A stretch of DNA of 54,650 bases, filler included, from Jimgerdemannia flammicorona (lineage: Eukaryota): the NCBI GenBank assembly GCA_003990765.1. It is 2 parts of 2 records of this genome, joined end to end, with 100 filler letters (N's around TTAATTAATTAA, not from the genome) between each part and the next. Parts side by side here need not be neighbours in the genome. Positions count along the whole stretch, not along the records: positions 27,380 to 54,650 come from RBNJ01000645.1; 1 more part is not named here. The stretch is one strand, 5' to 3'. Of the stretch, positions 10,960-54,064 are shown piece after piece. The position numbers were made by a program, and so were the translations under genes. How positions within the stretch are numbered: the first letter of the stretch is position 1; each line of letters starts with the position of its first letter. Under the pieces are notes generated by a model. That model did not search any database. It was not told the DNA's origin and worked only from the letters and a program-made list of their open reading frames with translations.

Positions 10960-11281
10960 TAGTGCTCTCAATGAATTGAATCAAATCAAATTTGACCCAA
11001 ATTCAATTTGATTCAAAATTCAATTTGAACCCTATTTTTTGAAATATAATAACTCGATTAAAACATGTCCAAATTTAATGGTCTTTAGCTTGTTAGATCT
11101 CCTTATATAAGGGGAATCTAACAAGCTAAAGGTCATTAAATTTGGATGTGTTTTCATCGAGTTATTACATTTTGAAAAATAAGGTTCAAATTGGACCATC
11201 AGTTTGATTCGAATTCAATTTGATTCAAATGACCCTCAATTTGATTTGATTCAAATTGATTTGATTCGTTTGGGAGCACTA
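10960..11281. mobile_element. 322-bp palindromic MITE with hAT ends, inserted in pol of B
   Basis: Termini TAGTGCTCTC...GGGAGCACTA. 8-bp TSD GTTATATA / GTTGTGTA (two transitions). Nearly self-complementary about ~11107. Confidence 0.92.
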
Positions 11282-14420: not shown

Positions 14421-14469
14421 AGCCAAATGGTCAAGTCTTTAGAAAACTTTTCCAGTTGAGTCTCTAAAA

Positions 14470-23479: not shown

Positions 23480-23965
23480 TTGCAGCCTAAGTGGGGTGGG
23501 GTTGGCAGTAGCGGCGGAGGGAGCATACAATATTTGCAGCCCTCAGCCAGCAGCAAGGGGCAGCCCCAAGCTGCCAGTGCTCGGGTTGGTGGGTGGGTTG
23601 GTGGGTGGGTCAGTTGGTCAGTGGAGGGAGTGCGCAAAATTTGCAGCCCTCTGCCGGCAGCAAGGAGTAGCCCCAAGCTGCAAGTGTCCAGGTCAGGGGG
23701 GTAGGCAGAGGGAGCATATAAAATTTGTGGCCCTCTGCCAGCAGTGAGGGGCAGCCCCAAGCTGTCAGCACCCAGGTTAGTGGGTGGGGTCAGTTGGTGG
23801 GTGTGGGGTTGGCAGAGGGAGCATGCAAAATTTGCAGCCCTCCATCAGCAGCAAGATGCAGCCCCAAGCCACAAGTGTCTGGGATGAGTGGGACAGGTGG
23901 AGGGAGCATGCAAAATTTGCGGCCCTCTACCAGTAACATAGAGGCAGCCCCAAGCTGCTAAGAAG
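23480..23965. repeat. GC-rich tandem repeat, five ~85-110-bp units, inside the hAT
   Basis: Core GGGAGCATGCAAAATTTGCAGCCCTC...GCAGCCCCAAGCTG recurs at ~23520, 23626, 23710, 23817 and 23902. Confidence 0.85.
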
Positions 23966-28727: not shown

Positions 28728-31700
28728 AGGATGTTTGGTGTGAGAATGAGGATGATTGGGTTGAGTGGACTAGGGAATGGGGTGGGGCTGCTGCTTGGTT
28801 TGGAAAAGTGGTGATTCTGGTGAGAAAGGGTAGAGGTAACTTGGGGAGTATTGGGAGCTGGAGTGATCACTTGGTCTGGGGAGATTGGCATCAGCCAGGG
28901 TAGGAGTCAGTGAGGGTTGGCTCTTGCTACTGCCCTGTGGTTAGGGGTGAGGATTGCATGGATTAAGGAGCTGCTGGAGGAAGGTATTCTCTTGGGGGAA
29001 GGGGTTGATGTGCTTGGGAGGGACTTTAATATGGTTTGGGATCAGCATCTGGACTGAACTGACAGTAGATGGGGTACAGAAGGGAGGAGTGGGGGCCTGG
29101 ATGCATGGGAGGAGATGGAGAGGCTGAGCTCCTTAGGAGATATGGGCAGAATACAATGGGGCAACTCAAGGGTCTACACATATTGGGTGAATGGCTTAGG
29201 TACAAGGATAGACTAGATTCTGATGGCAGAATGTTGGGGGTCTGATGTCTGGAAGGCTTTGGAGGTGGAATGGTGCCCATGGTCTGATCACTGGTGACTG
29301 TTGGGAAAGGGGCAGTTTGGGGGGAGTGGAGATGGACCCAGACATTGGTGCCTTAACTCCTCTCTGCTGGCTGAGAAGGAGTTGTAGGACTCATGGGTAA
29401 AGGACATTCAGGCGAAAATTTCCTGCTGGAGGTGTGAGGGTTTATCAGTGGGTGTCCATTGGATGAGATTGAAAGAGGCTGTAAGGGTCTATTGGAGAGG
29501 AGCTGGGAGAGAAGAGGGGAGGTGGATGAGGAAGCACATGAGGTGTGCTTCCAATAGGCTGAAGAGATTACATATGGATTGGGCAGGTCTGCTTGCTGCT
29601 GATGGGGTGGAGGACTGGAGGTTGGCATGGGTTAGATTGGAGATAATGGAACTGTAACAGATGTTGAGAGAAGAGGAAGAGGTGCATATACAAGATATGG
29701 CTGCAAGGCTATGGTGGCAGGGGCTCAAGGAGGGTGAGTGGCCTATTAGATTTTTGTCCCATCTGCTCAAAGCTAGGAGGGTGAGACATCGGTGGGATGG
29801 AGTCCTAGATGCTGATGGAGACATGGTACATGGCATGCAATGAATCTTAGGGGTTTTGAAAGAGAGATGGTAGAGTCTGTGGAGTGAGGAAGAAGGGGAT
29901 ACTGATGGGGTGGCTATTGAAGATATATTAGAAGAATTGAGGCCACCACAAGTGGCTGGACTGGAGGACTTGGCCTTGCCAGTGTGAGGTGAGGAGGTCC
30001 AAAATGTCCTTGCAGCAATTAGACCCAGAATAGCACCAGGGGAGGATGGACTACTGTGGGACTTTTGGAAGAAGATAGTTATAGTCTCTGGTATTTTGGG
30101 TGAGATGACTGCTCTCTATGATCATGTTCTTCAGAGTGATGAGTGGGTTAGAGAGCAGGACCTTGGGCTGGTGGCTTTATTGTACAAAGACAAGGGGAGG
30201 AGAGAAGACTGGAAGAACTGGTGGCCAATCATGCTTTTGGACATGGACAGGAAGATGGTGACTAAGGTGATTGTTGCAAGGCTGCAGAAGATTGTCTAAC
30301 AGGTACTGGGAGAGGAGCAGTGGAGCTTTGTTGGGGGTAGACTTATAAGAGATAGGACTGCATGGGTGCATGGTGTCATTGAAGGGGCCCAGGCTTGTGG
30401 CCTAGATAGAAGGTTGATTTTCTTGGACCAGGAGAAGGTCTATGACCAGGTCTAGCAAGTTTGGCTGTGCAAGGTGTTGGATCATATTGGTGTTCCTCCA
30501 GGATTTCAGGCTTCTATATTGAGTCTGTTAGAGACTGATGTTTAATAATTACCATGGTCTGGCATTTACTTTGGAAAGAGGAGTTCCTCAGGGAGACCCC
30601 CTGTCCCCTATTCTTTATGCCCTCTCTTTGGAACCTTTGATGGATAGAATTCACCGGAAGGTGGTAGGGCTCTCTATCTATGGTATAGTGTGGAAGGTGG
30701 GAGTATTTGCAGATGATATGGCAGTTGGTCTTGGGTCTGTAGCAGATGTCGAGGCAATTAAGGAGATGGTGGAATAGTATGAGGATCACTCTGAAGCAAA
30801 GCTCAACTGGCATAAGTGTGAGACTATAGTGCTGGAGAATGGGCTGGTGGGTGGGGACATCATTGGAACATTTGTTCCTACTGGTGAGATGGTATGGTAT
30901 CTGGGCATCTTCCTCTCTGTGTATGGATCTCTCCTGCCATGAGTATGGTGGGAGAGCAGGGTGGCTGCTTGGGGGGAGGCCCTTTGAGGTTGGGGAGGCT
31001 GCCATATCTCTCTAGCAGGGTGGGTAGCAATTCTGAATGTGTACTGATTTCCTAAGCTATAGTATGTGGCCTACCACCTTGACTTCCCAGCTTGGGTGGT
31101 AAAAAGGCTGATTAAGGTGACTAGGGATTGGATTTGGACAGGGTGGAGGTCCCAGATCAGTTGAGATACTCTTGCAACACCAGTGGTCAGGGGAGGTCTT
31201 GGCCTTGTAGATTTCCCTAAGAGGTTACACTGCTTGCAAGCCTGGTGGTTGAAGAGAGCAGCTGAACTGTAAGGAGGGGATTGGGTGCCTCTGTTGCAGA
31301 AGGTGTGGGAGATGTGAACCTCCCCTTGAGGGTCCTTAGAAGACCTACTCTCTTTGGTGGGACTTAAAGGAATTCAGAGACTGAGATTTAAGGGCTTTTG
31401 GTGGGGAGTGGTTGATGGAGTATACAGAATTGATCTGTGCTGGCAAGGTATTGAGGGGAAGATGTTGTGGAGACCTAGTATGTAGCGATGGGATAGATTG
31501 CTACTGGGGGGTGCTCCACTTGCTACTTTTGATATTGGGGACAGAGTGGAGTGTCAGCAGAGTCTTGGCCAGGATCTTTGGCCAAGTGGCTGGCAGGTAG
31601 TCAGGATTGGTGAGAAGTGGGACTGGGCAGGTATCTGGTCTTGGAGTGCTAAGGTACAGTGGTGGCTTCCCCTCAAGTTCTGAGTGGTGTGGTGGCAAAT

Positions 31701-32345: not shown

Positions 32346-32693
32346 GAGAGTGGGTTCATAATATAACTTATTTTTTCTCTTATGAACAGTACAACCAATA
32401 TTTTCTCTTTGAATGTGAATGGGCTAAGGGGATCTGGGCAGTGTAAGGACATTTTTAATTAGCTCAAGGGATTGGAGGCCGATCTCTTTTTACTGCAGGA
32501 TGTTCAGTGTAAGGATGAGGATGATCGGGTTGAGTGGACTAGGGAATGGGGTGGGGCTACTGCTTGGTTTGGAAAAGTGGTGATTCTGGTGAGAAAGGGT
32601 AGAGGAGACTTAGGGGGTATTGGGAGCTGGGGTGATCGCTTGGTCTGGAGAGATTGGTATCAACCGAGGTGGGAGATGGTGAGGGTCAGGCTC
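32346..32693 (+). mobile_element. Fragment of a second copy of the same LINE family (inter-ORF spacer and APE N-terminus, ATG 32382)
   Basis: MNSTTNIFSLNVNGLRG...LFLLQDV; 32498-32693 closely matches 28728-28923. Confidence 0.85.

Positions 32694-33851: not shown

Positions 33852-33912
<61 letters not shown>
32694..33912 (+). mobile_element. Short polyadenylated retroposon, probably a deleted LINE derivative
   Basis: AATAAA at ~33828 and A57 at 33856-33912. ALYICWVLR resembles the LINE ORF2 C-terminal W-x-x-R motif. No RT. Confidence 0.5.
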
Positions 33913-33914
<2 letters not shown>

Positions 33915-36900
33915 ACTCCTCCTTCTACTGAGAGTCCTTTCAATGCTAGGCTGCTGCAACAGCATATTCTTCCAACATATCCTTTAGGAATTTAGATGCT
34001 AATTCCTATATGGACTTGCTTGACTTCTCAGTTGGAAACTGTAGCTTCTTCAGCTGCATATAGGTTATATTCAGCTGCCTTTTGACTTCCTTTTTTAGTT
34101 GGTGCTTTAGCAGTTTGCCTTAACTTGACAAAGTCCAGTATTCTGGTAGTCAGGTTGTTGAGGTGGTGCAGAGTAGTAACAGTTGCTCACATTGCTGTTT
34201 GGGATTTTCAGTTAGGGTAGGCACTGGCCATGTGTCCTGTCTTTTGGCAATAGAAGTATACTCTGCTTCTTCAAAGTTCATTTCTTTCTCCTTCAGTGAG
34301 TTTCTTGAAGGTACTTGGCTGAGTGGGTTCATGATTTCTGAGTGTCCATGAGGTGGATGTTGAGGGAGCTCAGGATGCTTCATACTTGGGTTCTTCTCTC
34401 TTGATCCAAGTCTTTTCCTTGTTGTTGAATTGTCTTTGAGACAGAATTGGTCCAGCTGTTAGGATTCACTTGACCATAGTCTTGATTCTTACCAGGCACC
34501 ATTGTTGGTGGTCACAACTAACTGGGCAGCCTTGTTCTCAGATTTTTCTAGTAAGCCATTCAGGCAGAGCATCAAATAAATGGTCTGCCCTTGTACCATT
34601 TCATGCTTCATCATTGGCAATATATCCTAGGCCAATGGTGTTCAGGAGTGACTCAAGTTTTGTACAGAAGGTTTCAAATTCTTCTTTGCTATATACATCA
34701 AATTTGAGGTTGTGAAGTTTTACTTGAGATTTGGCAATTATGGTTTCACTGCAGTATTGAGCAATCATGAGTTGTTTGAGTCTAGGGGCTACAGGATGGG
34801 CTTCATATCCTGGGGCATTATTTGCTGTATTCTGGATAACTACTGTAGGTTGGATATCCCATATAAGGGATTTTTTAGGGAGGGTTCACCATCATTCTTT
34901 GGCAGGTCCTCAGAAGAATGTAACAACTTAGCAGACATAGGCTGTGGTAGTAGCAAAGAGTTGTTTCAGAGTGTGGTCTTGATTGTTTGTCAGAAGACAG
35001 TCGGCAACTTGCTCATTGGTCCATTGATTGGCTTCAAAGTTGGTATCAACCACACCAATAAAGCTTTGGACTTCTTGTATAGTACTATTGAAGATAGGTA
35101 AGCTCAGATTTTTGGTAGGTCAGGTCTGTTTGGCTAAGGCAGTAATGGTTGCTGCCATTATTGCTACCTAGGCTGTAAGGTCTAGAATCTGTTGGTTTGC
35201 TATATTGTTTACTGGAGGTGGTTGGACTGCTGATAGTGGTATTGCTTGTACTACTTAGGATACTGGTGCTGAGTGTGATGGAGTTCTTTGAGTCTGTATA
35301 AGTTACTGGAGTAGTAGTTGTGGGTCTGGAGTAAGGGCTCAATAGATAGCTGCTTGTTGCTATGTTGGTGTATTTTGTCCTGATGGAGGTGTATCTCCTT
35401 TGGTGGTATATCCAGAATCAAATTCACTGAGATACTCCTCCTTCTCTTTGGTTTGGTCCCCATGTAATTGGGTTTGCTCAGCATCAAAGTAGACGGAATC
35501 AGTTATATATCTGATTTCAGATGGACTTAATTCAAAGTCAAGTTCTGGTTCAGTATTGGTTTCAGATTCAGGTAGAGCTGTAGCAGAGCCTGCCTCAGTT
35601 TCAGAGTCAGGGAGTTGATGAAGGGTTTCTCTTACTTCTTCCTTAAGAATATAGCAGGCCTTGCTGTTCTGGAATCAGTAGTATAGTGTGGTCTTGGTTC
35701 TGGTATGGTGAAAGTTGGTGGAGTTGAGCCACTTAGCTATAGAGACTTGGGCTTCGTGAGAAACTAAGGCTAGAAAGACTGCTGCTGGTTGTCCTAGATT
35801 GCTCAGATTTGTGGAGCTGACAAAACTCTTATTGAGAAGAGTAAAGAAGGCTTCAATAAGACCTTCTTCATCTTGACTTGCTGGGTGTAGAGCAAGGAGT
35901 TCAGTGAATAGAGTTTCACCTATTTGCTAATTTAACTGGAGTTTTTGAATGAAGTTTGTCCCACTTGTTGTAGGTGTGAAGGTCAAATTGTTCTTGTATG
36001 TCAGGTTCAATTCTCTCCAGATTGTCAGATGGTTCAGGATAAATTCTAGTTCAGAGGTTGGGCTTTATATCAACTTATAGAAATTCGCAGAGGGGTTTGT
36101 AGCAAGGTGAGGAAGCATCTTGAAGTGGGATTGGATTGTAAATTGCTGCTACCAAGTTGTAAGAGGGTTGCTTTTTAGGGTAACTGTTATGTAGTTCTGG
36201 AAGAGTTTTCTGGAAGTTCTGGATATTCTGGAAGACTGTTTTCTTATAGTCAAGATCAATTTCATATGGAGTATGTCCTCTATACTTATTGATTTCAAGA
36301 TCAGATTGATGTCTCAACCAAAGTCCTTTTTTGGACTAGTTCTGAATGTTCAGGATTTTCCATATTTCAGGAGGTTTAAGAAACTAAGGCCAGCTTAGTT
36401 GAATTGGCATATCGCTGCAGACAATACCCAATTAGGAAATTTCATGATAGGGTTAGGAGTGGGACCTAACAGGAAGCAGATTTACTTAAGAGTGGTTTGT
36501 GGGTTATTAAATAGGTTTATTCGCTATTCATGATATTGCTATACTAGGAGTAGTTGTATAAAGAGATATTGTGGGGAAGTATTCAGGATTGTTCTTGTGT
36601 GTTTGAGTCTGAGATTCTGAGGTCTGTGAGAGTGGGTATTTATACTAGTGAGGGGCTATCTGAACTATGCTGAATATGGATATAGTACTTAGTACCTTAT
36701 TGAGTCAGAATGCAGTCATGTAGTACAAGTGTGATCTGACATATCAAGAGATCATCTGACTGCTGAGTCAGTTCACAGTCATGTTATATAAGGCTAATCT
36801 AACTATACTATGACTGTTAAGCTATTAATAGATTTAGACACTGTCTGAGTAGTCTTTGATGACATCACTATTGATGACATCATCTCTGATGAAGTAGTCA

Positions 36901-38218
36901 TCTAGAAAGAGTGGTTCATGGATTACTTCTCCTTGTTCACTAAGGTAATAATACATTGGGACTTCATCACCATCTCACAGGATTGCATCATTTGTCTCAT
37001 ATGCTGGATAAGGTGTTGGTGGGCAAAAGAGTAGTGCATTGTCTTCGCTTTCATCGGATTTGCTATTTGTATATCTTTTATAGATTACAGTACTATTAGT
37101 CACAGGGTTGTAGTAAGCTGGTGGCTGTGGTTCATATCACTTGTACTCAGGTGGTAGAGTTGTTGGTTCGATCTCAAGGGTTGTCTGAAGATACAGATTG
37201 TGTTCTCCAGTCTCTTCATTATAGTTGAAGTAATCAGAGGTGAATGCAGATTAGTATTCATGCTAGTGGTCATTGTCCCAATAAGTTTTGTATGTGGTTA
37301 TGAACTATTGTAAATTCATCAGCAAGGTTGGCAGTGTGATCAGGGTTGGTAGAGATCCTTGGCTTAATGTTATGTCAGCATCAGAGAGATCATTGTCTTC
37401 TGCTTTGTCTTCATAAAATTGGATTATATCATAGATGTCCTTCATAGTATATCCAACTTAGGGCATTTGTAGGATGTGGTCATTAGGGTGTAGGAAGGTT
37501 TTGTCTGTGGTCTCAACATACTTGAGATACTTTTGGTTGAGTTCTTGTATCATGTCATCGATTTGGCCATAGGATAAGGTAGCAACCATTTCACTGATAG
37601 TAACTTGGAGGCGAGGAATAATGGTGCTGTACTCATAAAAGAGTTCTCAGTATTTGCAGGCAATGAGCTTCTAGTGTTGAGATATCTAGGTAATGTCCAT
37701 GTCATGGTGGTGTTCAACTATGTCTTCTAGGAGATGTCTGATCTAGTAGTAGCTTGAGATTTGTCCAATCCAGTGGATCTCATTAAGCATGTTCAGAGTG
37801 TTCCATCAGCTTCTATGAAGTAGAGGGGTGCTAGGCTATGGATATTCATGAGGGGCAGAGAGGGTGTGGCTTGGTTGGCAATGGCATTCCAAATATCAGC
37901 ACAGATGCAGTTGTAGATCTCAGTGGTCATGTTTGTATGTTCCGAAGTTATAGTTGTTGTTTGTTTTAGTTCTCTGTTTTGATATGTCTTGGTGCTCGGT
38001 ATATATACATTTGGTTCTGATTGATAAGATTTTATTTGTGTGAATCTTGTGTTCTATGACTTCATATTGACTCAGCTTTGTGCACTGTGACTTCAGTTTA
38101 ACTCAGCTTCATGATTGTGCAGATGATTTTCAGATTTGTTTGGAGGTCGCACATGATTTTGGTAGCTTGTTCAGAGGGTGATATGTGATTTCTGTGGCTT
38201 GAAGGTTGTGTGCTTACA
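33913..38218 (-). mobile_element. Family C element, copy 1: 5' LTR 36158-38218, PBS, gag; 3' part replaced by the poly(A) retroposon; inserted in the RT of element D
   Basis: LTR TGTAAG...CTTACA; PBS TGGTAGCAGC at 36145-36154. Gag from ATG 36118 with decayed knuckle YFYCQKTGHMASAY at ~34218-34260. Confidence 0.9.
36834..37930 (-). pseudogene. LTR-encoded accessory ORF of family C, copy 1
   Basis: Colinear with 44390-45487; several stops and a 1-nt deletion. Confidence 0.85.
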
Positions 38219-41200
38219 GTATGAATTCTAGTTTAATTGATGAGGTGTCCTAAGTAGGCAATTTCCTGGGCTACAAACTTGTATTTCTTAGGCTTGATGT
38301 AGAGGTCATGCTTCTTGAGCTTCTTGAGAGCTAGCTGTATGTGATTGATATATTCCTGTGTAGTGTTACTGAAGATGATTATATCATCAACATAGACAAA
38401 GAGCCATTTTCCAATCTTGTTATTGAAGACTCTGTTCATCATTCACTGAAAACTTGCTGGGGTATTGTATATTCCAAATGGCATTCACAGGTAGATATAG
38501 GTGGCATCAGGTATGATGAAGGCTGATTTCTCACTAGCATCTTGAGTAAGACTAATCTGATGAAAGCCTGAGAACAGACCCAAGGTGGTGTAGTATTTGG
38601 CTTCACTTCCAAGAGTGATAAGAATTTCTTGAATATTTGGCAAAGGCTGTCTATTCTTCTTGGTAATTGTATTGAGCTTCTTGTAATCAATATAGAGTCT
38701 TGATGTAAACTCTCCAGGCTTACTTCTTTCTTTGGAGCAAGGACAATGAGTGAAGCCCAGGGACTGATAGCTTACTTGATAATTCTGGCTTCTTCCATTT
38801 TCTTGAGTTCTGCTTGCAGTTATTCTCTGTAGACAGGTGGTATAGGTCTGGCTTTCTGGTAGATGGTCTTGGTATCACCAGTATCAACTTTGTGATAATA
38901 CTTGGATTTTTGATTGTAGATATCTCTGAAGTCTGTAGCAAGTACTCCTTTATTCTGATACAGGATCTTGAGAAGTTATTCTTCTAGGGGAAAGTTTTCT
39001 CCAATGGTATATATATGCTTATTCTGATCTCTGTCTTTCTTGTACTCAAGTTCAGTAATCTTGGTGGTAGCATAGGCTCCTCTTCTAGTAGATCCAAAGC
39101 CTTGTTCTCCTCTCTTGGTCTTGATGAGTTCGATGGCTTCAGTGATCTTAGGCTTCTTGATTTTGTAGATCAGCATCTGGCCAATCCTGTCATACTTCTT
39201 GATTTTGAATAGGGTGGTGGGGTTGTGATTCCTGATTATAAGGAAGATCTTGCCAGTATAATCAGAGTCAATTATTCTTCCTTCAACTGAGATTTCACTT
39301 TTGGTCAGACTGCTCCTGGTTTTGATAATTCTGTCATGGTTTTCTAGCAACTTGACTCCAATTCTAGTGCCAAGTAGGGTGGTGGTCTGTGGTTTGAGGG
39401 TAGCATCTTGAATGCTGATAAGGTCCATTCCTATGGCTCCTTCAGTCTTGTATTCTGGGATCTTGGCTTCAGGGTAAAACTTCTTGACCTTGAGAGTGAT
39501 GTCTGATTCTTGTTCCTCCTCATTGTCACTGTTAGCCTGAAGCTCAGGGGACTGGTCATCTTCTTCAGCTTTCCTTTTTGCTTCAGCAGCTTCTTGCTCA
39601 TATTTCTGTTGACAGATTTTCCTGACTTCACTGATACAGGACCAGTAGTCATTCAGGTGTTCAGAGCAGTACATTCTAATACCATAGTATCTTTCTTGAG
39701 AGGCATAGCCATTAATGATCTTATTGTACTACTACTCATCTGTGAGCTTGAGTGTCTTGTTCTTATTCTTGTTCTTGTTCACTGAGTGTATGAAGACTTC
39801 AGTGTCCTCTTTATCTCCTTCCTCTATATCTAATAGGACTTCTTTGTAGATATTGATAGAGACTTATATCTTTCTTTCTCTATAGTTGATCTGTATCTTC
39901 TGAGCATTGAGGTCAATGATGGCCTTGGCCTTGTGAAGCCATTGGTTGCCAATAAGAATGTCATAGTTAGTGGTGCTTGTAACAATCACATCTACTGAGA
40001 TAGTAGCTCCTCCTATCTTGATGGAGACTTCTCAGATTTTGCTAAGAAGGATAGCTCATGTACCATCTGCTGTAACATAGACCATCTTGGTTATCTCAGC
40101 CTAGACAGCCAATTGCCTTCTTGCTCATAAGATATCCTCCAGGACTGGTATCAATGATGGCATCAAAGATACAATCTTCAATCTGATATGGAGTATAGGC
40201 TGATGTCTTGTGCTGATCTTCAGATTCTTTACCTAAGTCTTCTGATTCTTTCTATACATTGTGAGCTTCTACAATCTTGTACTCTTGATTTTTGATAGTA
40301 GTTGCAAGTTCTACTCTTAACTGCTGTCTGAAGGCAGGGACTTCAACTAGCTGTCCAAAAGTAGTATTGACCTTCTGTTCCTTGAGGTCCTTATAGATAT
40401 CATACTAGTGGATCTTGGTCTTGCACAGCTTCTATTCCTTCTTACTTTCACTTTCTCCTAAGACTGGAGTAGTGCTTTCAATAATTTAGTAGGCAGCTTC
40501 ATCTAACTCCATATCTTGATCAATCTCCTTGGTTTGAGTTTTGCTTTGAATAGTAATAGCTGGGGTCTTCTTTAGTCTTCCAACTGGCTTGCTGTTACTC
40601 TTCTTATCATAGGGCTTAGACTGGGTTCTGGTACCTTCAGTAGCAGGGTAGAATTCAAGCTCTTTATAGTATTCTTCATCATCAGTATTACTAATCTCCT
40701 TGATGACTACACATTGGTTTGTTCTCTGGTTCTGCTAGTATTGCTTGGTTGGGCTTTGCATCTTATTTTGGTCATGCAATTCTTTACATAGTGGCCTTCT
40801 TCTCTACATCTAAAGCATGTGATATTATATTCTTTTATAGCAGCTGCAAATCTCTACACTGGTCTCCTGTGAGCACTTCAGACTTCTCTAACAACATTAC
40901 CAAAATGTATAGTCATCTCAGCGAACTGCTTGGTAAGTTCCTCCACTGGGTTAGCTTTAGTTGTCTTGGGGGTAGGTGGGAATAGTTGTCTATTTACAAC
41001 TGTGGCAGGTATGATACTAGTTAGCTTTGATGGCTCTATCTTAATACTAGTTATTTTCTCTATTGAGTGTTTGGCAGAGTATCTGGTAGTCTAATATCTC
41101 TGTGCAAAGACCACTTTCTGATCAAGGGTCAGTACAGCTGGAGTAGACTGGATTGTTAGGGCAATTTCAGAGTGAACTCTTTTGAGAAAGGTTGAATCTG

Positions 41201-41833: not shown

Positions 41834-43711
41834 TATAAGTACACAACCTCCAAGCCACCAAAATCACATATCATCCTCAGAACCAATTTGGAAACTACAT
41901 GCAAGACTATAAAACAAGTTACTGAAGAGATCATCTGGTTATACAAAATATGCCAGCAAGCATGAGAACCTACCACTAAGATATAAGAATACCAGAAGAA
42001 GTACTATAACTATAAGACTGACTCTAGATCTCTATAACTAGTTTGATGTACTATACTATTATAATAGGAAATCAAAAGTACCAAAACTCAAACTGAGATA
42101 AGAAGAATCCTATCTTATCCATCAAAGATTCATGAATTGCACTTATCAACTCAAGACTAAAATATACTATAACCATATAAGACCTCATTACTTAGCAGAA
42201 GTAAACTATATTTGAATAACTTTGTTCACTCTATCTATATTACCTGTTAGAGATGGATGCTTCATCTGAACTCAAGAAAGCTGACATTGTCAAAACCAAT
42301 CTCAAGCTATCCATGTGATAGATATTACTACTAGAAATTGCCTTAGATTATAGAAAATATCATTTCCAAGAGGTTCAAACCCCCAGCTGCAACATTGGGA
42401 GCCCTTATTCTAGACAAGGATAGCCAGTCCTTGCAAATATACCAGCAGGCTAAAAAAAAAGAGAACCAAGACCTATTATCCTTGTACAACCACTATCACC
42501 AAGGATAGTCTTAATCTTGCAAGAGATAGAAGTGACGACATCTTGGAAACTAATGATGTCAGAAGTCAGAAAACTGCTCAGACTTTGCCAGAGATGATAT
42601 CATCAATAGTGATATCATCAAAGACTAACCAGACAGTACCTAAATCTATAAATAGCTTAGCAGTCATAGTATAGTTAGATTAGTCTTATATAACGTGACT
42701 GTAAACTAACTCAGTAGCCAGATGATTCCTTGATATGTCAGATCACACTTGTACTATATGACTACATTTTGACTCAGTAAGACACTAAGTGCTATATCCA
42801 TATTTAGTATAGTCCAGATAGCCCCTCACTAGTATAAATACCCTCTCTTCCAGACCTCAGAATCTCAGACTAGAACAGACTTGAACAATCCAAACACAAC
42901 TCCTGAGCACTTCTCCACAATATCTCTTCACACAACTACTCCTAGTATAGTAATATCATAAATAGTGAATAAACCTATTTAATAACCCACCAATCACTCT
43001 TAAGTAAATCCACTTTCTGTTAGATCTCACTCTTAACCCCATTATGAAATTTCCTAATTAGATATTGTCTATAGTGATATACTAATTCAACTAAGCTGGT
43101 CTTAGTTTCTTGAACTTCCTGAAATACAGAAAATCCTGAATATCCAGAACTAGTCCAAAAAAGGACTTTGGTTGAGACATCAATCCAATCTTGAAATCAA
43201 TAAGCATAGAGGATATACTCCATATGAAATTGATCTTAACCTTAAGAAAACAGTCTTCCAGAATATCCAGAACTTCCAGAAAAACCCTTCCAGAACTATG
43301 TAATAGTTACTCTAATAAGTAACCCTCTTATGACTTGGTAGTAGTAGTTTACAATCCAATTCCACTTCAAGATACTTCCTCACCTTGCTACAAACCCCTC
43401 TGTGAATTCCTATAAGTTAGTATAAAGCCCAACCTCTGAACTGGAATTTATCCTAAACTATCTGACAATCTAGAGAGAATTGAACCTGATATATAAGAAC
43501 AATTTGACCTCTACACCTACAACAAGTGAGACAAACTTTACTTAAAGAAAGAAGTACTCCAATTAAATCAGCAGATAGGTGAAACTCTATTTACTGAACT
43601 CCTTGCTCTACATCTAGCAAGTTAAGATGAAGAAGGTCTTATAGAAGCCTTCTTTACTCTTCTCAATAAGAGTTTTGTCAGCTCTATAAATCTGAGCAAC
43701 TTAGGACAACC

Positions 43712-45774
43712 TGTAAGAGGGTTGCTTTTTAGGGTAACCGTTACATAGTTCTGGGAAGATTTTCTGGATATTCTGGATGTTCTGGAAGACCGTTTTCTTA
43801 TGGTCAAGATCAATTTTATATAGAGTACATTCTCTATGCTTATTGATTTCAAGATCAGGTTGACGTCTCAACCAAAGTCCTTTTTTGGACTAGTTCTGGA
43901 TGTTCAGGATTTTCCGTATTTCAGGAAGTTCAAGAAACTAAGACCAGCTTAGTTGAATTGGTGTATCGCTGCAGACAATACCCAATTAGGAAATTTCGTG
44001 ATGGGGTTAGGAGTAGGACCTAACAGGGAGCGGATTTACTTAAGAGTGGTTTGTGGGTTATGAAATAGGTTTATTTGCTATTCATGATATTGCTATACTA
44101 GGAGTATTTGTGTGAAGGGATATTATGGGGAAGTGCTCAGGAGTTGTGTATGGATTGTTCAAGTCTGAGATTCTGAGGTCTGGGGGAGGGGGTATTTATA
44201 CTAGTGAGGGGCTATCTGGACTATACTAGATATGGATATAGCACTAAGTACCTTGCTGAGTCAGAATGCAGTCATATAGTACAAGTGTGATCTGACATGT
44301 TAAGAGATCATCTGACTGCTGAGTCAGTTCACAGTCATGACATACAATGCTAATCTAACTATATTATGACTGCTAGGCTATTTATGGGTTTAGGTGCTGT
44401 CTGGGTAGTCCTCGATGACATCACCATCGATTGCATCATCTCTGATGAAGTAGTCGTCTAGGAAGAGTGGTTCGCAGATTACTTCTCCTTGTTGGCTGAG
44501 ATAGTAATACATTGGAACTTCATCTCCATCCTACAGGATAGCATCGTCTGTTTCGTATGCTGGATAAGATGTTGGTGGGTGAAGGATGGGTGTATTGTCT
44601 TCGCTTTTATCAGATTCACTGTCTGCGTACCTTCTATAGGTTACAGCACTATGAGTTGCGGGGTTGTAGTAAGCTGGCAGCTGTGGTTCATGTTGCTCGT
44701 ACTCAGGTGGTGGAGTGGTTGGTTCAATCTCGAGGGTTGTCTGGAGGTACAGGTTGTATTCTCCGGTCTCTTCATTGTAATTGAAGTAGTCGGGGGTGAA
44801 TGTGGGTTGGTATTCGTGCCAGTGGTCATTGTCCCAATAAGTCTCGTATGCAGTTATGAACTGTTGCAAGTTCATCAGCAAGGTTGGCGGAGTGATCAGG
44901 GTTGGCAGAGATCCTTGGCTAGAGGTCATGTCAGCATCAGAGGGATCATTGTCTTCTGCTTCATCTTCATCGAAGTGGATTATATCGTAGATGTCCTTCA
45001 TGGCATATCTGACTTGAGGCATTTGCAGGATATGGTCATCAGGGTGCGGGAAGGTTCTGTCTGTGGTCTGGACATATTCGAGGTACTTGTGGTTGAGTTC
45101 TTGTACCATGTCGTTGATTTGGCCATAAGAAAGAGTAGCAACCATTTCGCTGGTAGTAACTTGGAGGCGGGGAATAAAGGTGTTGTACTCATAGAAAAGT
45201 TCTTGATGTTTGTGGGTGATGAGCTTCTGGTGTTGAGATATCTGGGTAATATCTGTATCATAGTGGTATTCGACCATGTCTTCTAGGAGGCGGCCAATCT
45301 GGTAGTAGCTTGAGATTTGTCCAATTCGGTGGGCCTCGCTAAGTATGTTCAGGGTATTCCATCGGGCTTCTACGAAGTAGAGGGGTGCCAGGCTATGGAT
45401 ATTCATGAGGGGCAGAGGGGGTGTAGCTCAGTTGACAATAGCATTCCAAATGTCAGCACAGATACGGTTGTAGATCTCAGTGGTCATGTTTGTGTGTTTA
45501 GAAGTTGTGGTGTTGTTTGTTTTGATTCTCTGATTCGACGCGTCTCAGTGCTCGGTATATATGCATTTGGTCCTGATTGGTAAGATTCTGTTTATGTAAA
45601 CCTTGTGTTCTGTGACTTTGTATTGACTCAGCTTTGTGTGCTGTGACTTCGGTTTGACTCAGCTTTGTGATCAAGCAGGTGATTTCCAGATTTATTCAGA
45701 GATTGCATGTGATTTCAGTGGCTTGTTCAGAGGGTGACATGTAGTTTCAGTGGCTTGGAGGTTGTGTGCTTACA
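43712..45774 (-). mobile_element. Solo LTR of family C (2063 bp) inserted in the gag of copy 2
   Basis: TGTAAG...CTTACA ends; 5-bp TSD CAACC (43707-43711) / CAATC (45775-45779). The flanks rejoin to the uninterrupted sequence seen at 35780-35795. Confidence 0.95.
44390..45487 (-). pseudogene. LTR(U3)-encoded accessory ORF of family C, best copy (365 codons, two internal stops)
   Basis: ATG 45487 to TAA 44390 in one frame. The TGA at ~45428 is CAA in the other copies and the TAG at 44531-44533 is TGG in the 53620 copy. Includes ORF 44531..45406. Confidence 0.9.
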
Positions 45775-48113
45775 CAATCAGCAGTAGTCTTTCTAGCCTT
45801 AGTTCCTTATGAAGCCCAAGCCTCTGTAGCCAAGTGGCTCAACTCTACTGACTTTCACTATACCAGGACCAAGACTACATTATACTACTGATTCCAGAAT
45901 AGCAAGGCCCACCATATTCTTAAGGAAGAAGCAAGAGAAACCCTGCATCAACAACCTGACCCCAAACCAGAAGCAGGCCCTGCTATAGTCCTATCTGAAC
46001 CCAAAACTAATACCAAACCAGAACTTGACTTTGAATTAAGTTCATCAGAAATCAGATATACAACTAATTCTATCTACTTTAATGCTAAGCAAACTCAATT
46101 ACACAGAGACCAAATTGAAGAAGAGGAGGAGTATCTTAGTAAATTTGATCTTAGATATACCACAGAAGGAGATGTATCTCCATTAGGACAGAATACATCT
46201 ATATAACAACAAATAGCTATCTATCAAGCCCTCACTCCAGACCTACAACTACTACTCTAGCAACTTACACAGACTCAAAGAACTCCATCACACTCTGCAT
46301 CAGTATCTTAAGTAGTCTAGTAACACCACTACCAGTAGTTGTAAGCACACAACCTCTAAGCCACAGAAATCACACATCACCCTTTGAATAAGCCACTGAA
46401 ATCACATGTAACAGCCAAACAAATCTGGAAATCACCTACTCAATCATGAAGCTGAGTCAAACTAAAGTCACAGTATACAAAGCTGAGTCAATATGAAGTT
46501 ACAGAACATAAGATGTATACAAACAGAATCTTACTAATCAGGACCAAATATATATATACTGAGCACTGAGATACATCAAAACAGAGAACCAAAACAAACA
46601 ATAATGTAATATTTTAGCATTGTTTATTCCTTTTCTTTGTCTTTCTTCAATATTCTATGACCTTCTGGTACTTTCCGAATGCTTAGAAATCCTTTCTTGG
46701 TGCCGAGCATTAACTAGTACTTATTTAGTTGGTCACTGAATATCCTGGAAACTTGTAGAACTTTATTTGTCATTATTTATCATCTTTGCTGAGAACTTTC
46801 CTCTTGGCATTTTCCTTTGATTTCTCAGATCCTTCTGGATCCTTCTTTCAGATCTTGTATAAATATTCCCTTTGTTCTCATAAATAAAGTCTCAGAATAT
46901 TTTCTCTCAGAAATCCTTTGAGAACACTTGAATCCTTAGTATCTCTTTAAGCTACTTAGGACTACTAGACTTAGTCACTTTCTCATTTAGAAACTAGAAC
47001 CATTACACTTGGTAGCAGTGGTGAAGTTACACCTAGCCTTATCAAGACACCTCTCAAGATATCAGTCACAACACTATGGAGGACAATGGATGGAACCCTT
47101 CATATAGTACCTATGGTCCAGGCAATGTCTCATATAATCAGTACAATCAGCAAGAAGAAGAGGAACAGCAAAACCCTACTCAGTCGAATGGGGCCATCAA
47201 GAGTCTTTTGCAGACTACATTAGCTCAGATTGCTTAACTTCAAGAATGCATAGAAAGAAAGGAAAGCAAGGTCCCCACTCATACCTCCATACCTCTACCA
47301 ACATCAATACATCTAACAGCAGTCACTATCAAGCCTCAGAAGCCTGACACCTTTGATGGTCAAAGAGGAGGACTGTCTACTGATACCTGGCTTTTCCAAT
47401 TGGAGTAATATGGAGAACTGACCAATTTGGAAGAAGCAACACTAGTCCAATTTGCCACCACACTCCTCTAAGGAAATGCTGCAATCTGGTGGCGAAATTG
47501 TGTCCAGAATACCAGATTCTCTGGCCGAATTAAGACCTGGGGCAAATTCTCTGATACTATTCAAGGCCAATTCAAACCAGTCAATAGCACCAAGGCCACG
47601 CGAGACTGTCTGGTAAATGTCAAACAACTCAAGTCTGTGCAAGTATATAATGCACAATTCCTGTCAATCCTGCTAGAATTACCACATGTCACTGAAGACA
47701 AAAAAGTCGACAAGTACATCTGAGGCCTGAAAGGTCAAACCTGAGTTCATGTTGAACTGGAAGAACCCAAGGACCTAGATACAGCAATGAAAATTGCTGA
47801 TAGGTTTGATGTCATCACCTATGGTCATTACTTTGAATAGAAGAGACTGCCTTTCAACAACAACAATAACCACAGAAGGGAGGAACCCAAAGTCAGAACT
47901 GTTGGACCTGCCCCCATGGATCTAGATACCATCAATAAGAACAAGAAAGGCAAACTTACACCTGAGAAAAAGGAGTACCTCAAGAAGGCTAGAGCCTGCT
48001 TCTTTTGCTGTCAGCCTGGTCACATTGCAACCAAATGTCCCAAGAAAACTGCTGAACCAAAGAGGATTCTGGTCCTGTCCAAAGACACCCAAGGTCAACC
48101 AGTTGAATAAGAA

Positions 48114-48530
48114 GTTGTACTCAATTTCATGCGAGTCAACCCCAAGGCCCAGATCCCTCAAGCATAGTCAGAAGAAGCCATTGGTTTGGACCTTCAAGCA
48201 GTACAACAAGTCACTATTCTGGCACATGAGAGAAGGCTCATTCCAACTAGCCTTTCAGTCAAAATCCCCAAGGAACATTATGCAAGAATTGCACCAAGAT
48301 CTGGCCTCAGTTTCAAGCACTCATTAGATGTTGGTGCTGGAGTCATTGACTCTAACTTCTAAGGTAAAATGCAAGTCCTGCTAGTCAATCACAAGAACCA
48401 ACCATATACCATCAATGAAGGAGACAGAATTGCACAGCTCATTCTGGAGCAAGCCACTCTACCAGTCATTAAAGAAGTCACCAAGCTGTCCTCAACCAAG
48501 CGAGATCAGAAAGGCTTTGGCAGCACTGAC
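48114..48530 (+). pseudogene. dut: dUTPase domain of element E (between the Gag zinc knuckle and the protease)
   Basis: AIGLDL, ARIAPRSGL, GVIDSNF*G, RIAQL and RDQKGFGST; all five motifs present. Confidence 0.95.
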
Positions 48531-51500
48531 AAAGTTGCAAGTATAGCCAAGAACCAAGCCAATTCAATGCTCATCTTCAAAGGTCTAGTCAAGAGACAAG
48601 AGCTAGATATTCTCATAGACAGTGGAGCTGTTGGGAACTTCATCAACAAGAACCTCATCAACAAGCTCAAGATTCTCACCAAACCAGCTGGCAAGAATGG
48701 TAGAGTTGTCACTGCAGATGGTACCACCTTACCAATTGACTCAATTGCCACTAAACTTCCCCTCAAGATCCAGAAGTACTGGGAATGTTTAGATTTTGAG
48801 GTAGCACCACTAGGAGACCATGACCTGATCCTAGGCAAACCCTGGCTTATATGGCACAACTTTTAGATTGATTGGACCAAGAATGAAGTCACCTTGATTC
48901 AGAATGGAGCCAACATTACCATCAAGCCAGACAAGACTCAGACAAGAACCCCAATTGCTACCCTCTCAGCAATTCAGTTCAAGAAGGCCCTCAAGAAAGC
49001 TACCTGTGCCTTTGTGACACTGATCTGATCAAAGAAAGAAGACAAGAAGCTATCAATTAGTGAAAGTGTCAAGTTACTGCTGAACAAATATAAGGATGTC
49101 TTCCTGGACAAACTATCTGGTCTACCACCTTCAAGAGACCATGACCACAAAATCAAGTTGGTACCTGATGCAGCTATACCTAAGAAGAAAATGTACCACA
49201 TATCTCTACTCGAAATTGAAGCAGTTAAGAAGGAACTCAATGAACTCATCAAGCGAGGAGCCATTCAGCCAAGCAAGTCACCCTTTGGCTCCCCAGTCCT
49301 ATTTGTCAAGAAAAAGGATGATACTCTACAAATGTGCATAGACTACCATGCACTCAACAAGATCATAGTCAAGAACTACTATCTGCTACCACTCATAGAT
49401 CAAATCTTTGATACTCTCAAGAATGCAAAGTACTTCACCAAGATTGATCTCATCTCTGGGTATCACCAAATTCGAATCAAGCCAGAAGACATACCCAAGA
49501 CTGCCTTTATGACACCCTTTGGACTCTACAAGTTTCTAGTCATGACCTTTGGTCTCACCAATGCACCAGCAACCTTTCAAGACCTCATGCAAACTGTCTT
49601 CAAGGATCAGCTCTATATCTTTGTACTTGTATATATTGATGACATTCTGATCTTCAGCAGCACTGAAGAAGAACATCTCAAGTACATTGAACAAGTCCTC
49701 AAGATCCTCCATGAGAACAAGCTCTATGCAAAGCTCAAGAAATGTGAATTTTTCAAGAATCAAGTTGAATATCTTGGACACATTATATCAGCCAAAGGAA
49801 TTCAAGTAGATCCAAGGAAAATACAAGCCATTGAACAGTGGCCTGTACCAGTAAACCTCACTGAACTCAGGTCCTTCCTTGGTCTGGCTGGATACTACCA
49901 TCAATTTGTCAAGAACTTCTCTGGTATCACAGAATCTTTGACAAACCTCCTGTGAAAGGAACCCAACTCTGACCTCTATGTCCCCTACATCTGGGATTCT
50001 TTCTGTCAACAAGCTTTTCAAGAACTTAAGAACTGTCTGACCCATGCACTTGTCCTTAGAAACATGGACCCAAACTTGAAGTTCATGGTCACTACAGATG
50101 CATCTAACTTTACCATTGGTGCAGTCATTTCTCAAGATGATGGTCAAGGACACCAACCTATTGCCTTTGAGTCAAGAAAATTGTCCCCAGCAGAACAAAA
50201 GCTGGCTACTCATGAAAAGAAACTCCTGACAATCATGCATGCCCTCAAGATGTGGCAATACTATCTAGAAGGAGTTGAGTTTGACGTGATCACTGATCAC
50301 AGGTCTCTTCAATACATCAACACTCAACCAATCCTTTTTCGCCAACAAGCCAAGTGGAGTCAACTGCTTCAGACCTTTACCCCAAACATCATCTACAAGC
50401 CTGGCAAAACTCTAGTTGTACCAGATGCACTTTCAAGAAGACCTGACCTGGCCACAATTTTACAAGTCACTGTGGTACCAGAATTCCTCAATGAGATCAA
50501 GAAGGCATATGAACAAGACTCTCTGGTTCTACAAAGGAACACCAAGGAATTCAAGGAAAAGTACACTATCAAGGACAACCTCATATACTATCAAGACAAA
50601 GTATATATTCCTGCCAACCCTGAACTATGGTACAAGATTCTTCATGAACATCATGACTCCCTACTAGCTGGTCACCTTGGAATGAAGACCATCAAGAATA
50701 TCCAACAAGACTACTACTGGCCAAATATGCTCAAGGAAATCAAGAAGTATATCCAAAGCTGCGATCTTTGCCAAAGAAACAAGTCAAGCAACCAAGCACC
50801 CACTGGTCTTCTACAACCCTTGTCAATTCTGACCAAGAAATTTGAACAAGTCACAATGGACTTCATTGTGCAACTCCCATGAACCAAAACAGGCTATGAT
50901 GCTATTATTGTATTTGTAGACTATCTCACTAAGATTACAATTACCAAGCCAACCACAACCAATGCCACTGCCCTAGAAATTGCAAGAATCTTCTTCAAGA
51001 CTGTCTTCCACCATTATGGACTTCCCTGAGTAATTATCAGTGACCACGACCCCAAGTTCACAAGTCACTTTTGGCAAGCACTCTTCAAGACCCTTGGAAC
51101 CCAAATTGCTATATTCACTGCCTTCTATCCTCAAACTGATGGACAGACAGAGCAAATGAACAGAACACTTGAAAAAATGCTCAGAAACTATATATCTTAT
51201 GAGCAAGATAATTGGGACCACAATCTGACTTATGCCAAGTTCATTTACAACAATGCCAACCAATCATCAACTGGTCTTTCCCCATTCCAGCTACTTCACG
51301 GTCAAAACCCCGAGACCCCTGCAAGCCTAGTCCAATTCCAGTAATCCAGTTATACACAAGTCCCCACAGCCCAGAACCTTATCAACAAAATGGATTCCCT
51401 TCTCAAGATTGCCACTATAAATCTGTAAAAGGCTCAGTAACATCAAGCTAAGTATGCAGATAAGAAGCAGCAAGATGTCATATATAACATTGGTGATATG

Positions 51501-51758
51501 GTTCTACTCAAAACTGATGACATCAAGGTTCAATCTCAAGTTAACTGCCAGTCAGCCAAATTCCAGCCCAAGTACCTTGGATCCTTCAAGATCACTGAGC
51601 AAGTCTCTACCTGGTCTTACCATCTCAACTTGCCAACAACCATGTGTATATACCCAGTATTTCATGTGTCACAACTCAAAGTCTGGAACCAGTCACCTCC
51701 ATACCCTGGCTGAATTCTGACACCATCAGCACCAGTTATAGTTGAAGACCACATCAAG

Positions 51759-51910
51759 TATGAAGTTAAGAAAATCTTAGACAAGCGAGTCCAATACCAT
51801 CACACAGAATACCTAGTCAAGTGGATGGGTTACCCTGAATATGATGCCACCTGGGAACCTGCCACCAATCTCAAGAACTCCCAAGACCTCATCCAAGAGT
51901 TTAAACAAAA
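51759..51910 (+). pseudogene. Chromodomain at the integrase C-terminus of E
   Basis: YEVKKILDKR...EYLVKWMGYPEYDATWEPATNLKN; aromatic-cage residues retained. Confidence 0.93.
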
Positions 51911-52673
51911 AGGAACTCATTGACTGCCCATGAGGTTCTCCCCTTGGATAGTAGATAACCTACTGTGTTGATCAGGCACATTATACATTGGGGCTCTCTA
52001 AGGAATACAGCATCAGAAGCAAGAGATATAGAAGAATCCTATAAATCCTATAACCAATGAGGTTTGAACCAGTTCTTATCTGATCAAGATGATACTTTGG
52101 CCCTCGCCTTATACAAGGACAGCCAATCCTTACCAATGAGTCAGTATATTTAATTTGAAGTTTTTTTTAGTCTTATTGTTTATCATATATATATAACTTT
52201 GAGAATTCAACAAGGACATTGATTCTTAAGGAGGGGGAGATGTAACATTTTAGCATAGTTTATTCCTTTTCTTTATCTTTCTTCAATATTCTATGATCTT
52301 TTGGTACTTTCTAAATACTTAGAAATTCTTTCTTGGTGCTGAGCATTAACTAGTACTTATTTAGTTAGTCACTGAATGTCCTGGAAACTTATAGAACTTT
52401 ATTTGTCATCATTTGTCATCTTTGCCAAGAACTTTCCTCTTGGCATTTTCCTTTGATTTCTCAGATCCTTCCAGATCCTTCTTTCAGATCTTATATAAAT
52501 ATCCCCTTTATTCTCATGAATAAAGTCTCAGAATATTTTCTCTCAGAAATCCTTTGAGAACACTTGAATCCTTAGTATCTCTTTGAGCTACTTAGGACCA
52601 CCAGACTTAGTCACTTCCTTATTTAGAAACTAAAACCATTATAAACAATCACAACTTCTGAATATACACAAAC

Positions 52674-53771
52674 ATGACTACTGAGATCTATAACTACATC
52701 TGCGCTGATATTTGGAATGTCATTGTCAACCAAGCCACACCCTCTCTACCCCTTATGAATATCTATAGTCTAGCACCCCTCTACTTTATGGAAGCCTGAT
52801 GGAATACCCTGAACATACTTAGCAAGGTCCACTGAATCAGACAAATCTCAAGCTACTACCAGATTGGCCACCTCCTGGAAGATATGGTCAAATACCACTA
52901 TAATACAGATATTACTCAGATATCTCAACATCAGAAACTCATTGCCCACAAACACTGAGAACTCTTTTATAAGTATAGCACTATTATTCCCTACCTCTGA
53001 GTCACTACCAGCAAAATGGTTGCTATCTTGTCCTATGGCCAAATCAATGACATGATACAAGAACTCAACCACAAGTACCTTGAATATGTTCAGACCACAG
53101 ACAGAACCTTCCCACACACTGATGACCATATCCTGCAAATGCCTTAAGTTAGATATGCCATGAAGGACATCTATAATATAATTCGATTCAATAAAGACAA
53201 AGCAGAAGACAACAATCCCTCTGATGCCAATATGACTATGAGCCAAGAATCTCTGCCAACCCTGATCACTCTGCCAATCTTACTGATGAACTTATAATAG
53301 TTTATAACCACCTACAAGACCTATTGGGACAATGATCACTGGCATGAATACCAACCCACATTCACTCCTAACTACTTCAACTATAATGAAGAGACCAGAG
53401 AATATAATCTGTACCTTCAGACAACTCTTGAGATCAAACCAATAACTCCACCACTTGAGTATAAGTGACATGAACTACAGCTACTAGCTTATTACAACCC
53501 CATAACTCATAGTGCTATAACCTATAGAAGGTATGCAGATAGCAAATCTGATGAAAGTGAAGATGATGTACCTCTCTTTCACCCACTAATGCCTTATCCA
53601 GTATATAAGATAGATAATACTATCCTGTGGAACGATGATGAAGTTCCAATATATTATTACCTCAGCAAACAAGGAGAAGTAATCTGCGAACTACTCTTCC
53701 TAGACAACTACTTCATCAGAAATAATATCATCAATGGTGATATCATCAAAGACTACCCAGACAGTATCTAA
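52674..53771 (+). pseudogene. LTR-encoded accessory ORF of family C, copy 4
   Basis: Exactly 1098 nt from ATG to TAA, the same as 44390-45487; includes ORF 53589..53771. Confidence 0.88.
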
Positions 53772-54064
53772 ACCTATAAATAGCTTTGCAGTCATAGTAT
53801 AGTTAAATTAGCCTTATATTATGTAACTGTGAACTAACTCAGCAGTCAGATGATCTCTTGATATGTCAGATCACACTTATACTACATGACTGTATTCTGA
53901 CTCAGCAAGGCACTAAGTGCTATATCTATATCTAGCATAGTCCAATAGCCCCATACTAGTATAAATATTCCCTCCCCCAGGACTTCAGAATCTCAGATCT
54001 GAACAATCCAAACATAACTCCTGAGTACTTCCCCACAATATCCCTTCATACAACTACTCCTAGT

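Follow-up and report, generated by a model that had tools for sequence, protein, structure and literature searches.

A 365-codon reading frame within the U3 region of a 2-kb long terminal repeat family in Jimgerdemannia flammicorona: probable remains of an accessory gene

The window analysed here, which is the whole stretch of 54,650 nucleotides (nt) from the genome of Jimgerdemannia flammicorona, contains copies of a long terminal repeat (LTR) that we call family C, together with other retroelements inserted into and around them. Three family C LTR copies, found by self-BLAST of the window and named copy A, copy B and the third copy, span the region of interest, and all three carry an open reading frame (ORF) inside U3, in the sense orientation and on the same strand as gag. 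The frame has 365 codons in copy B, and its nature is the subject of this report. Retrotransposon LTRs are treated as non-coding control regions and are masked by annotation pipelines. The coordinates of the features are collected in Table 1.

The family C repeat is a bona fide LTR of 2.06 kb. Copy B is a solo LTR that runs from TGTAAG to CTTACA and is flanked by a target-site duplication (TSD), CAACC/CAATC; the same termini are present in copy A, and the third copy shows the start. The unsplit target of the B insertion is found at 35787-35792, in the leader of A's element, and the empty site of B is represented in contigs from three of four sequencing runs, in which the flanks are joined and 2068-2077 nt are skipped, in agreement with the length of the LTR (2063 nt) plus the TSD. 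The contigs of these four runs were aligned to the window, two of the runs being DNA and two only guessed to be RNA. A primer-binding site (PBS)-like sequence lies just beyond copy A, and the same flank adjoins the LTR end in one outside contig (run X10, at 43714), while a purine run, taken as the polypurine tract (PPT), abuts the first base of the LTR in seven X10 contigs, with an agreement of 0.63. The LTR ends given in the preliminary description, which had been fixed from the TSD-flanked solo copy, are therefore correct. The family is abundant, with 4227 aligned pieces in run X1, and DNA of the window was matched in soil and root metagenomes as well as in two organism datasets.

The ORF of copy B starts 287 nt into the LTR and downstream of the PPT, not in the internal region. 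It lies upstream of the main TATA box, TATAAATA, and of the presumed start of R at about 44148, and hence in U3, as the preliminary description had placed it; a complete ORF in U3 is the position known from the LTR ORF of the Sag type in mouse mammary tumour virus (MMTV). The ORF had also been described as complete. Its 365 codons plus TAA are indeed present, but copy B, the best of the three, is interrupted twice in frame, by TGA at codon 20 (45430-45428) and by TAG at codon 319 (44533-44531), which leaves an uninterrupted middle of 298 codons. Both stops are sense codons in the third copy, and the identical length of the frame in B and the third copy (1098 nt) and the loss of 1 nt in A are likewise as first reported. 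None of the 15 stop columns is common to all three copies. A single transition would turn 29 codons into stops, and every one of the 19 stops in A and the third copy sits at one of these. Five stops are common to A and the third copy; we considered descent from a dead master copy as the reason and rejected it, as an overlap of this size is expected from hits that struck the two copies independently (P=0.11). Contigs of both DNA runs cover 30 of 30 bins of the aligned stretch.

Several properties mark the frame as coding. Base composition differs between codon positions within the ORF (chi2=82.6, p=1e-15) and does not in the remainder of the LTR (p=0.33), and a sliding scan of the whole window has its strongest periodicity peak at the ORF, above those of the pol genes. 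Shuffling the LTR 2000 times produced open frames of no more than 221 codons, compared with the 298 that are uninterrupted in B. By the NG86 method, the ratio of nonsynonymous to synonymous substitution (dN/dS) for the sense frame is 0.19-0.27, the five remaining frames having values of 0.32-1.48, and YN00 gave 0.55 and 0.79 for the two copy pairs for which it returned values. Neither a stop or frameshift fixed across the three copies nor a sense-frame dN/dS near 1, both of which the preliminary description had named as findings that would speak against a gene, was observed.

The evidence for selection comes from a permutation test in which each observed difference between two copies was redistributed among sites of the same trinucleotide context, with 5000 permutations (a dinucleotide version was also run). 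Between B and the third copy 82 of 173 differences are synonymous, versus 63.0 under the null (standard deviation (sd) 4.7), and between B and A the figures are 86 of 177, versus 67.0 (sd 5.0); in both comparisons, none of the 5000 permutations reached the observed count. A synonymous excess is otherwise seen only in the antisense frame that shares its third positions with the sense frame. In 12 of 12 negative-control tests there was no such excess: six on the 1-kb leader (three frames in two directions), three on the 3' part of the LTR (three frames downstream of the ORF) and three on the LTR pair of another family. The last pair belongs to a single element and has a coding-like frame, with 57 synonymous differences of 182 versus 58.4 expected, and its two LTRs can have diverged only after insertion. 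The 13 best-supported variant places listed in the ORF comprise eight synonymous and five conservative ones. Within the limits of three copies, part of the divergence between the copies thus arose under purifying selection on the sense frame, in a lineage that was still transposing. The window as a whole has a CpG observed/expected ratio of 0.15 with an excess of TpG (1.15) and CpA (1.22), and aligned contigs show about 12 transitions for each transversion, as do the differences among repeat copies; this combination of CpG depletion and transition bias is the mark of heavy cytosine methylation and deamination.

Table 1. Features of the window that bear on the family C LTR and its reading frame (positions count along the whole window)
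Feature	Position	Strand	Details
ORF of copy B, 365 codons plus TAA (44392-44390)	44390..45487	-	LTR nt 288-1385 of 2063
ORF of third copy, 1098 nt, 8 stops	52674-53771	+	sense codons at both B stop places
ORF of copy A, 11 stops	37930-36834	-	1 nt shorter: deletion at ORF nt 122
Main TATA box, TATAAATA	44193..44200	-	190 nt 3' of ORF stop
U3 5' of ORF, candidate promoter	45488..45774	-	three-copy alignment, motif positions
R-U5 part (putative)	43712..44148	-	AATAAA at 44075-44070
Copy B, solo LTR, 2063 nt	43712..45774	-	self-BLAST, junctions, empty-site contigs
TSD of copy B	left CAACC 43707..43711, right CAATC 45775-45779		4/5 identical; junction reading
Copy A, 5' LTR, 2061 nt	36158..38218	-	element extends leftwards; self-BLAST
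PBS-like sequence, TGGTAGCAGCAA	36143..36154	-	3 nt (ACT) beyond last base of copy A
A's element, internal region: ~1-kb leader, gag frame, dUTPase	33911..36157	-	read-through with X at stops, Pfam
Third copy, first 265 nt	46340..46604	+	resumes at 52645-54064 beyond nested insertion
Third copy, remainder	52645..54064	+	family homology stops near 54064
5'-truncated fourth family C LTR	42584..43330	+	last 19 ORF codons to LTR end
Leader of truncated copy's element	43331-43711 and 45780-46339	+	host element of B and third-copy insertions
Nested Ty3/gypsy element splitting third copy	46605..52644	+	not family C
Second-family element, ~2.0-kb LTRs	4329-16512; LTRs 4329-6317 and 14545-16512	-	periodicity scan
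Second-family U3 frames	16182-15325 and 6016-5181	-	~285 codons, LTR nt 331-1188, sense

The encoded protein of 365 residues has an isoelectric point of 4.2, with 17.6% Asp and Glu versus 4.1% Lys and Arg, 8.8% Tyr and 7.7% Pro; it is also rich in Thr and has no basic region. No transmembrane segment was found in it, the highest Kyte-Doolittle mean over 19 residues being 0.86, and its properties suggest a protein that is neither Env-like nor nucleocapsid-like. Of the earlier description as a protein with a helical N-terminus and an acidic, Tyr/Pro-rich tail, the composition stands, whereas helices appear only in a model with a pLDDT of 32. It is not a Gag or Pol fragment, as Pfam gave no match at E<=10; the element has a gag (CCHC) and a dUTPase of its own in the internal region, and the LTR ORF is therefore an extra gene. 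The ORFs of the nested element gave no match to the family C LTR by tblastn.

Two relatives were found, both of them metagenome proteins. P0002 (128 residues, 85% identity) begins at the same first Met and is open to its end, while P0001 (247 residues, 69% identity), which shares the C-terminal end, is uninterrupted over its length and shows two in-frame gaps of two residues each, which preserve the frame. A search for shorter proteins, able to catch pieces of decayed copies, returned only P0002, and an Atlas search with the ORF protein gave no usable match. In metagenome contigs, 379 pattern matches to further family C loci were obtained, of which 0 were confirmed, and a transition-tolerant motif of 42 letters, which recovered all three window copies, had 0 hits in metagenome contigs and 0 in viral contigs. 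Three further candidates were discarded: P0003 (E=8e-7), a 68-residue tandem-repeat protein with 38 residues matched, the score of which is inflated by the repeats; SKA1, the best sequence match in the PDB, at E=0.33; and a PPxY motif as a conserved late domain, as the single PPxY is missing from P0001.

A second LTR family in the window also has a frame in U3, with the position and orientation seen in family C and at corresponding places in the two LTRs of one element. This frame is decayed, but its periodicity (p=2e-8) peaks at matching places in both LTRs, and many stops in one of them are sense codons in the partner; the frame encodes an acidic EEEE stretch, and TATAAATACC lies downstream of it in the LTR. 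That two diverged families share this architecture speaks for U3-borne ORFs as a trait of the element group.

As to expression, two TGAGTCA motifs (45661-45655 and 45630-45624), of which copy A has one and the other two copies have both, precede the frame, and a TATATA at 45561-45556, about 70 nt before the ATG, is found in all three copies, with a short upstream ATG at 45566. On these motifs, the 287-nt stretch before the ATG is a candidate promoter of the ORF. Further downstream, the two runs guessed to be RNA show a rise of about 100-fold in contig depth below 44140, over 43840-44140 as compared with U3 or U5, and one contig terminates at 44148 in adapter-like letters, which we take to be the sequencing adapter. 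The depth jump and the contig end are a weak hint, compatible with transcription that begins about 45-50 nt below the TATA box. Depth over the ORF is low beside that over R in the same runs, where contigs can neither rank nor bound transcripts. In the contig data only, the interval 43840-44148 (-) could also represent an abundant short R-region transcript from many LTRs.

We favor the reading that the frame is the remains of a real accessory gene located wholly in U3, on which purifying selection acted during the diversification of the family and which underwent neutral decay once inserted, and we put the probability of this reading at roughly 0.7. The preliminary description had called it a functional accessory gene; the marks of selection, the position in U3 and the presence in a solo LTR agree with this, but all copies in the window are dead, and the word functional can apply at most to a once-active lineage. 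With the PPT upstream of the gene, reverse transcription copies it into both LTRs, and solo LTRs retain it. In the genomic RNA, U3 would form the 3'-end behind pol, as the last part before R, and the gene would there resemble an additional ORF between pol and the 3' LTR. A simple evolutionary route to this arrangement, which is that of MMTV sag, would be a shift of the PPT/LTR border upstream over a 3' accessory ORF in sense orientation, so that the PPT now lies 5' of the ORF. We consider it most likely that the gene would have been expressed as a transcription unit of its own within the LTR, starting from the TATATA and TGAGTCA motifs and ending at the poly(A) signal in R; such a unit would be complete in each LTR taken singly, the solo LTRs among them. 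A spliced subgenomic RNA would be an alternative route. The product may have acted in trans for the element, and our guess would be an adaptor in assembly or regulation, or a factor that counteracts silencing by the host. After insertion, the copies in the window have decayed by C>T/G>A transitions in the CpG-depleted genome.

A number of observations weigh against this reading. None of the three window copies is intact, the stops numbering 2, 8 and 11 and one copy having a frameshift. Differences that create a stop have accumulated at the neutral rate (8 versus 8.7 expected, and 11 versus 9.2), and nucleotide divergence in the ORF, at 16%, equals that of the non-coding 5' part of U3 (16-18%) and exceeds that of the promoter part (12-14%) and of R-U5 (10%), the latter value being for A and B only, as the third copy is non-homologous there. 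The neutral rate of stops and a divergence like that of non-coding U3 indicate that inserted copies decayed freely. The selection tests were made on three DNA copies, and the two permutation tests both include copy B. At the level of the protein, Pfam returned 0 families at E<=10 for P0004, P0001 and P0002, and no relatives other than P0001 and P0002 emerged from 1.84 billion representatives and 5.8 billion clusters. Since both had been detected as called ORFs, their openness is partly a matter of ascertainment. The AlphaFold2 model made from three sequences has a mean pLDDT of 32.3 and an unusable fold. Homology between the second-family frame and that of family C is not significant (BLASTP E=0.54, for a colinear N-terminal stretch; hhalign probability 3.5%). 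The candidate promoter is a reading of motif conservation only, in three decayed copies.

Among the alternatives, we regard it as unlikely that the frame is a passenger, i.e., a processed host mRNA, or part of one, that was transduced into U3 with coding marks predating the capture and that does the element no service. An intronless, coding-like frame from ATG to stop, with no similarity to any retroelement protein, is what such a capture would leave behind, and gene capture by LTR retrotransposons is documented (Vicient & Casacuberta, 2020, PMC7264820). However, the search of 1.84 billion representatives and 5.8 billion clusters, in which the host proteome is possibly not included, gave no host parent, and the synonymous excess concerns differences between transposon copies and so arose after any capture. 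The ORF is moreover present in all three spanning copies, and presence in most copies speaks against simple transduction by a criterion of the same review (PMC7264820). The analogous U3 frame in the second family also argues against a passenger.

Two further explanations are, in our view, very improbable. In the first, there is no gene, and the open frame is a by-product of an A/C-rich, stop-poor sense strand of the LTR. The sense strand is indeed poor in G and T, an antisense frame of 274 codons is likewise open and all copies contain stops, but shuffling such a strand gives at most 221 codons and periodicity is confined to the ORF; with a synonymous excess specific to the sense frame, clean controls and in-frame gaps in P0001, this explanation was already disfavoured. 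In the second, the gene served the host, as a domesticated or regulatory product made from many solo LTRs, which do retain the whole unit together with the candidate promoter. Against this, all three copies decay at the neutral rate, and selection for a host function would act on particular loci and not on the lineage that generates the copies. That the real gene is the antisense frame at 44462-45286 (+) is hardly credible: 274 codons are open on that strand, and plant elements commonly have antisense additional ORFs close to the 3' LTR (PMC7264820; PMC11963269), but the frame has no synonymous excess (54 of 173 versus 60.2, and 52 of 177 versus 55.3; its third positions are the first positions of the sense frame), P0001 and P0002 were both called in the sense frame, and a coding frame on the sense strand is expected to leave its antisense mirror open.

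If the frame is the remains of an accessory gene, as we favor, its location has consequences. A gene in U3 is copied twice per element and is not lost when recombination between the LTRs removes gag and pol. Solo LTRs would then not be inert, provided that the gene is expressed, and the dosage of its product would follow the size of the entire LTR population. An orphan protein, acidic and Tyr/Pro-rich, that selection has maintained in a transposon would also be a candidate for a new host-element interaction. It is possible, though we would not count on it, that Ty3/gypsy elements with a dUTPase and 2-kb LTRs form a clade with such a self-contained gene, its promoter, ORF and poly(A) site all lying inside the LTR; the thousands of LTRs of the family would then be a distributed source of a trans-acting protein with, for example, an anti-silencing role. 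Every full element would in that case hold two copies, and every solo LTR would be an expressible one.

The remainder of the family C element is represented by the internal region next to copy A. A gag-like frame runs from a Met at 35158, contains a CCHC knuckle at 34258-34211 and is followed by a dUTPase at 34096-33911 (Pfam E=2e-9), with leader, gag and dUTPase in a single frame. The knuckle has the form CX2CX4HX4 with the last Cys position altered, and Pfam made no Retrotrans_gag call. We label family C as Ty3/gypsy-like on the basis of gag-CCHC and dUTPase only, its reverse transcriptase (RT), its RNase H (RH) and its integrase (INT) lying outside the window, and the order protease (PR)-RT-RH-INT is that shown by the neighbouring families only. 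The leader itself, which extends from the PBS to the gag Met, at 35226-36142 (-) and in the copy at 43331-43711 and 45780-46339, contains one stop-poor frame, the few stops of which are common to both copies.

The arrangement of the copies reflects repeated insertion. We considered whether A and B might be the LTR pair of a single element and rejected this, B being a solo LTR located in a different family C element's leader; the stretch with dUTPase and RT that separates A from B (39728-38236) is part of a different, truncated element, and the third copy is a separate insertion into the same leader as B. The 3' LTR of A's element was not found within the window, the element being interrupted by other insertions. 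A pair of 190-nt direct repeats (28728-28917 and 32497-32686, 89% identical) with an RT fragment inside (30532-30774, +) is probably another nested element that interrupts it. Ahead of the truncated fourth LTR (42584-43330), the interval 41911-42583 (+) holds the 3'-end of an integrase gene of a decayed GPY/F type, whose homologue in the other family lies at 6977-6406, and the same LTR is preceded by a purine run rich in A (42447-42466). Flanked by the end of pol and, opposite, by a PBS-leader, this truncated LTR may reflect a tandem or recombinant arrangement, or a form of the LTR without the ORF.

The nested element that splits the third copy has LTRs of 402 nt, at 46604-47005 and 52240-52641, and a dUTPase-PR-RT-RH-INT region at 48363-50882. 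Its RT has one metagenome match at 91%, the other, named matches being at 44-57% identity and coming from green plants (Tanacetum, Iris, Helianthus, Riccia, Haematococcus) or from contaminated metagenome-assembled genomes. A dUTPase at the gag/protease boundary is seen in three different Ty3/gypsy-like elements of the window, at 38976-39728 (-), 48363-48530 (+) and 33911-34096 (-). An Atlas search with the dUTPase ORF returned only clusters of phage-type dUTPase, below 0.9, and in the available part of a plant reference survey the word dUTPase occurs 0 times (PMC6317226). Imperfect tandem repeats, with self-matches at offsets of about 100-300 nt, occupy 23491-23958, and Rfam and tRNA scans were empty.

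Extra genes are known from other LTR retrotransposons, and we compare them here with the family C ORF. The additional ORFs termed aORF-3S (Athila, Bagy2 'env-like'; PMC7264820) are, like the family C ORF, extra sense ORFs 3' of pol that have no relatives beyond the elements. They differ in being internal and upstream of the PPT, whereas the family C ORF lies downstream of it and is thus carried by both LTRs and by solo LTRs; the 'env-like' label is not matched either, as the family C protein has no transmembrane segment. The antisense ORFs of Retand, Grande and RIRE2 are also extra 3' ORFs of Ty3/gypsy elements and are family-wide (PMC11963269; PMC7264820), but they are internal, and in family C it is the sense frame and not the antisense that carries the selection signal. 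Fungal Ty3/gypsy elements with a dUTPase (Postia, Phanerochaete, Tuber Tmt1; Novikova et al., 2010, PMC2864245) share the combination of gag-CCHC and dUTPase with family C, and some of them are drawn with an 'add. ORF of unknown function' (PMC2864245). An LTR-borne ORF is not described for them in the available part of that paper, and the nearest named relatives of the nested-element RT in our window are from green plants. The review of additional ORFs, in the portion available to us, makes no mention of an ORF located in the LTR (Vicient & Casacuberta, 2020, PMC7264820). Cassandra terminal-repeat retrotransposons in miniature (TRIMs) are similar in that a functional unit with its own promoter is carried by the LTR and copied into both LTRs; the unit there is a Pol III 5S rRNA-like module and not a protein gene.

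In the literature searched, which left supplements and subscription journals outside, LTR-borne ORFs for proteins were found only for MMTV (e.g., PMC2118998), and carriage of an accessory gene self-contained in the LTR is not described there for LTR retrotransposons. The sag gene of MMTV, known as the 'LTR ORF', lies in U3 in the sense orientation and upstream of the LTR promoter of this mammalian retrovirus, and its product is a membrane glycoprotein. The family C ORF shares with it a complete sense frame in U3 upstream of the LTR promoter. Its protein has no membrane anchor and no similarity to any Pfam family at E<=10, and it comes from another host kingdom, so that the analogy is one of position only. 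We therefore suggest that the family C ORF is best seen as a variant of the 'additional ORF' theme of LTR retrotransposons and as a positional analogue of MMTV sag.

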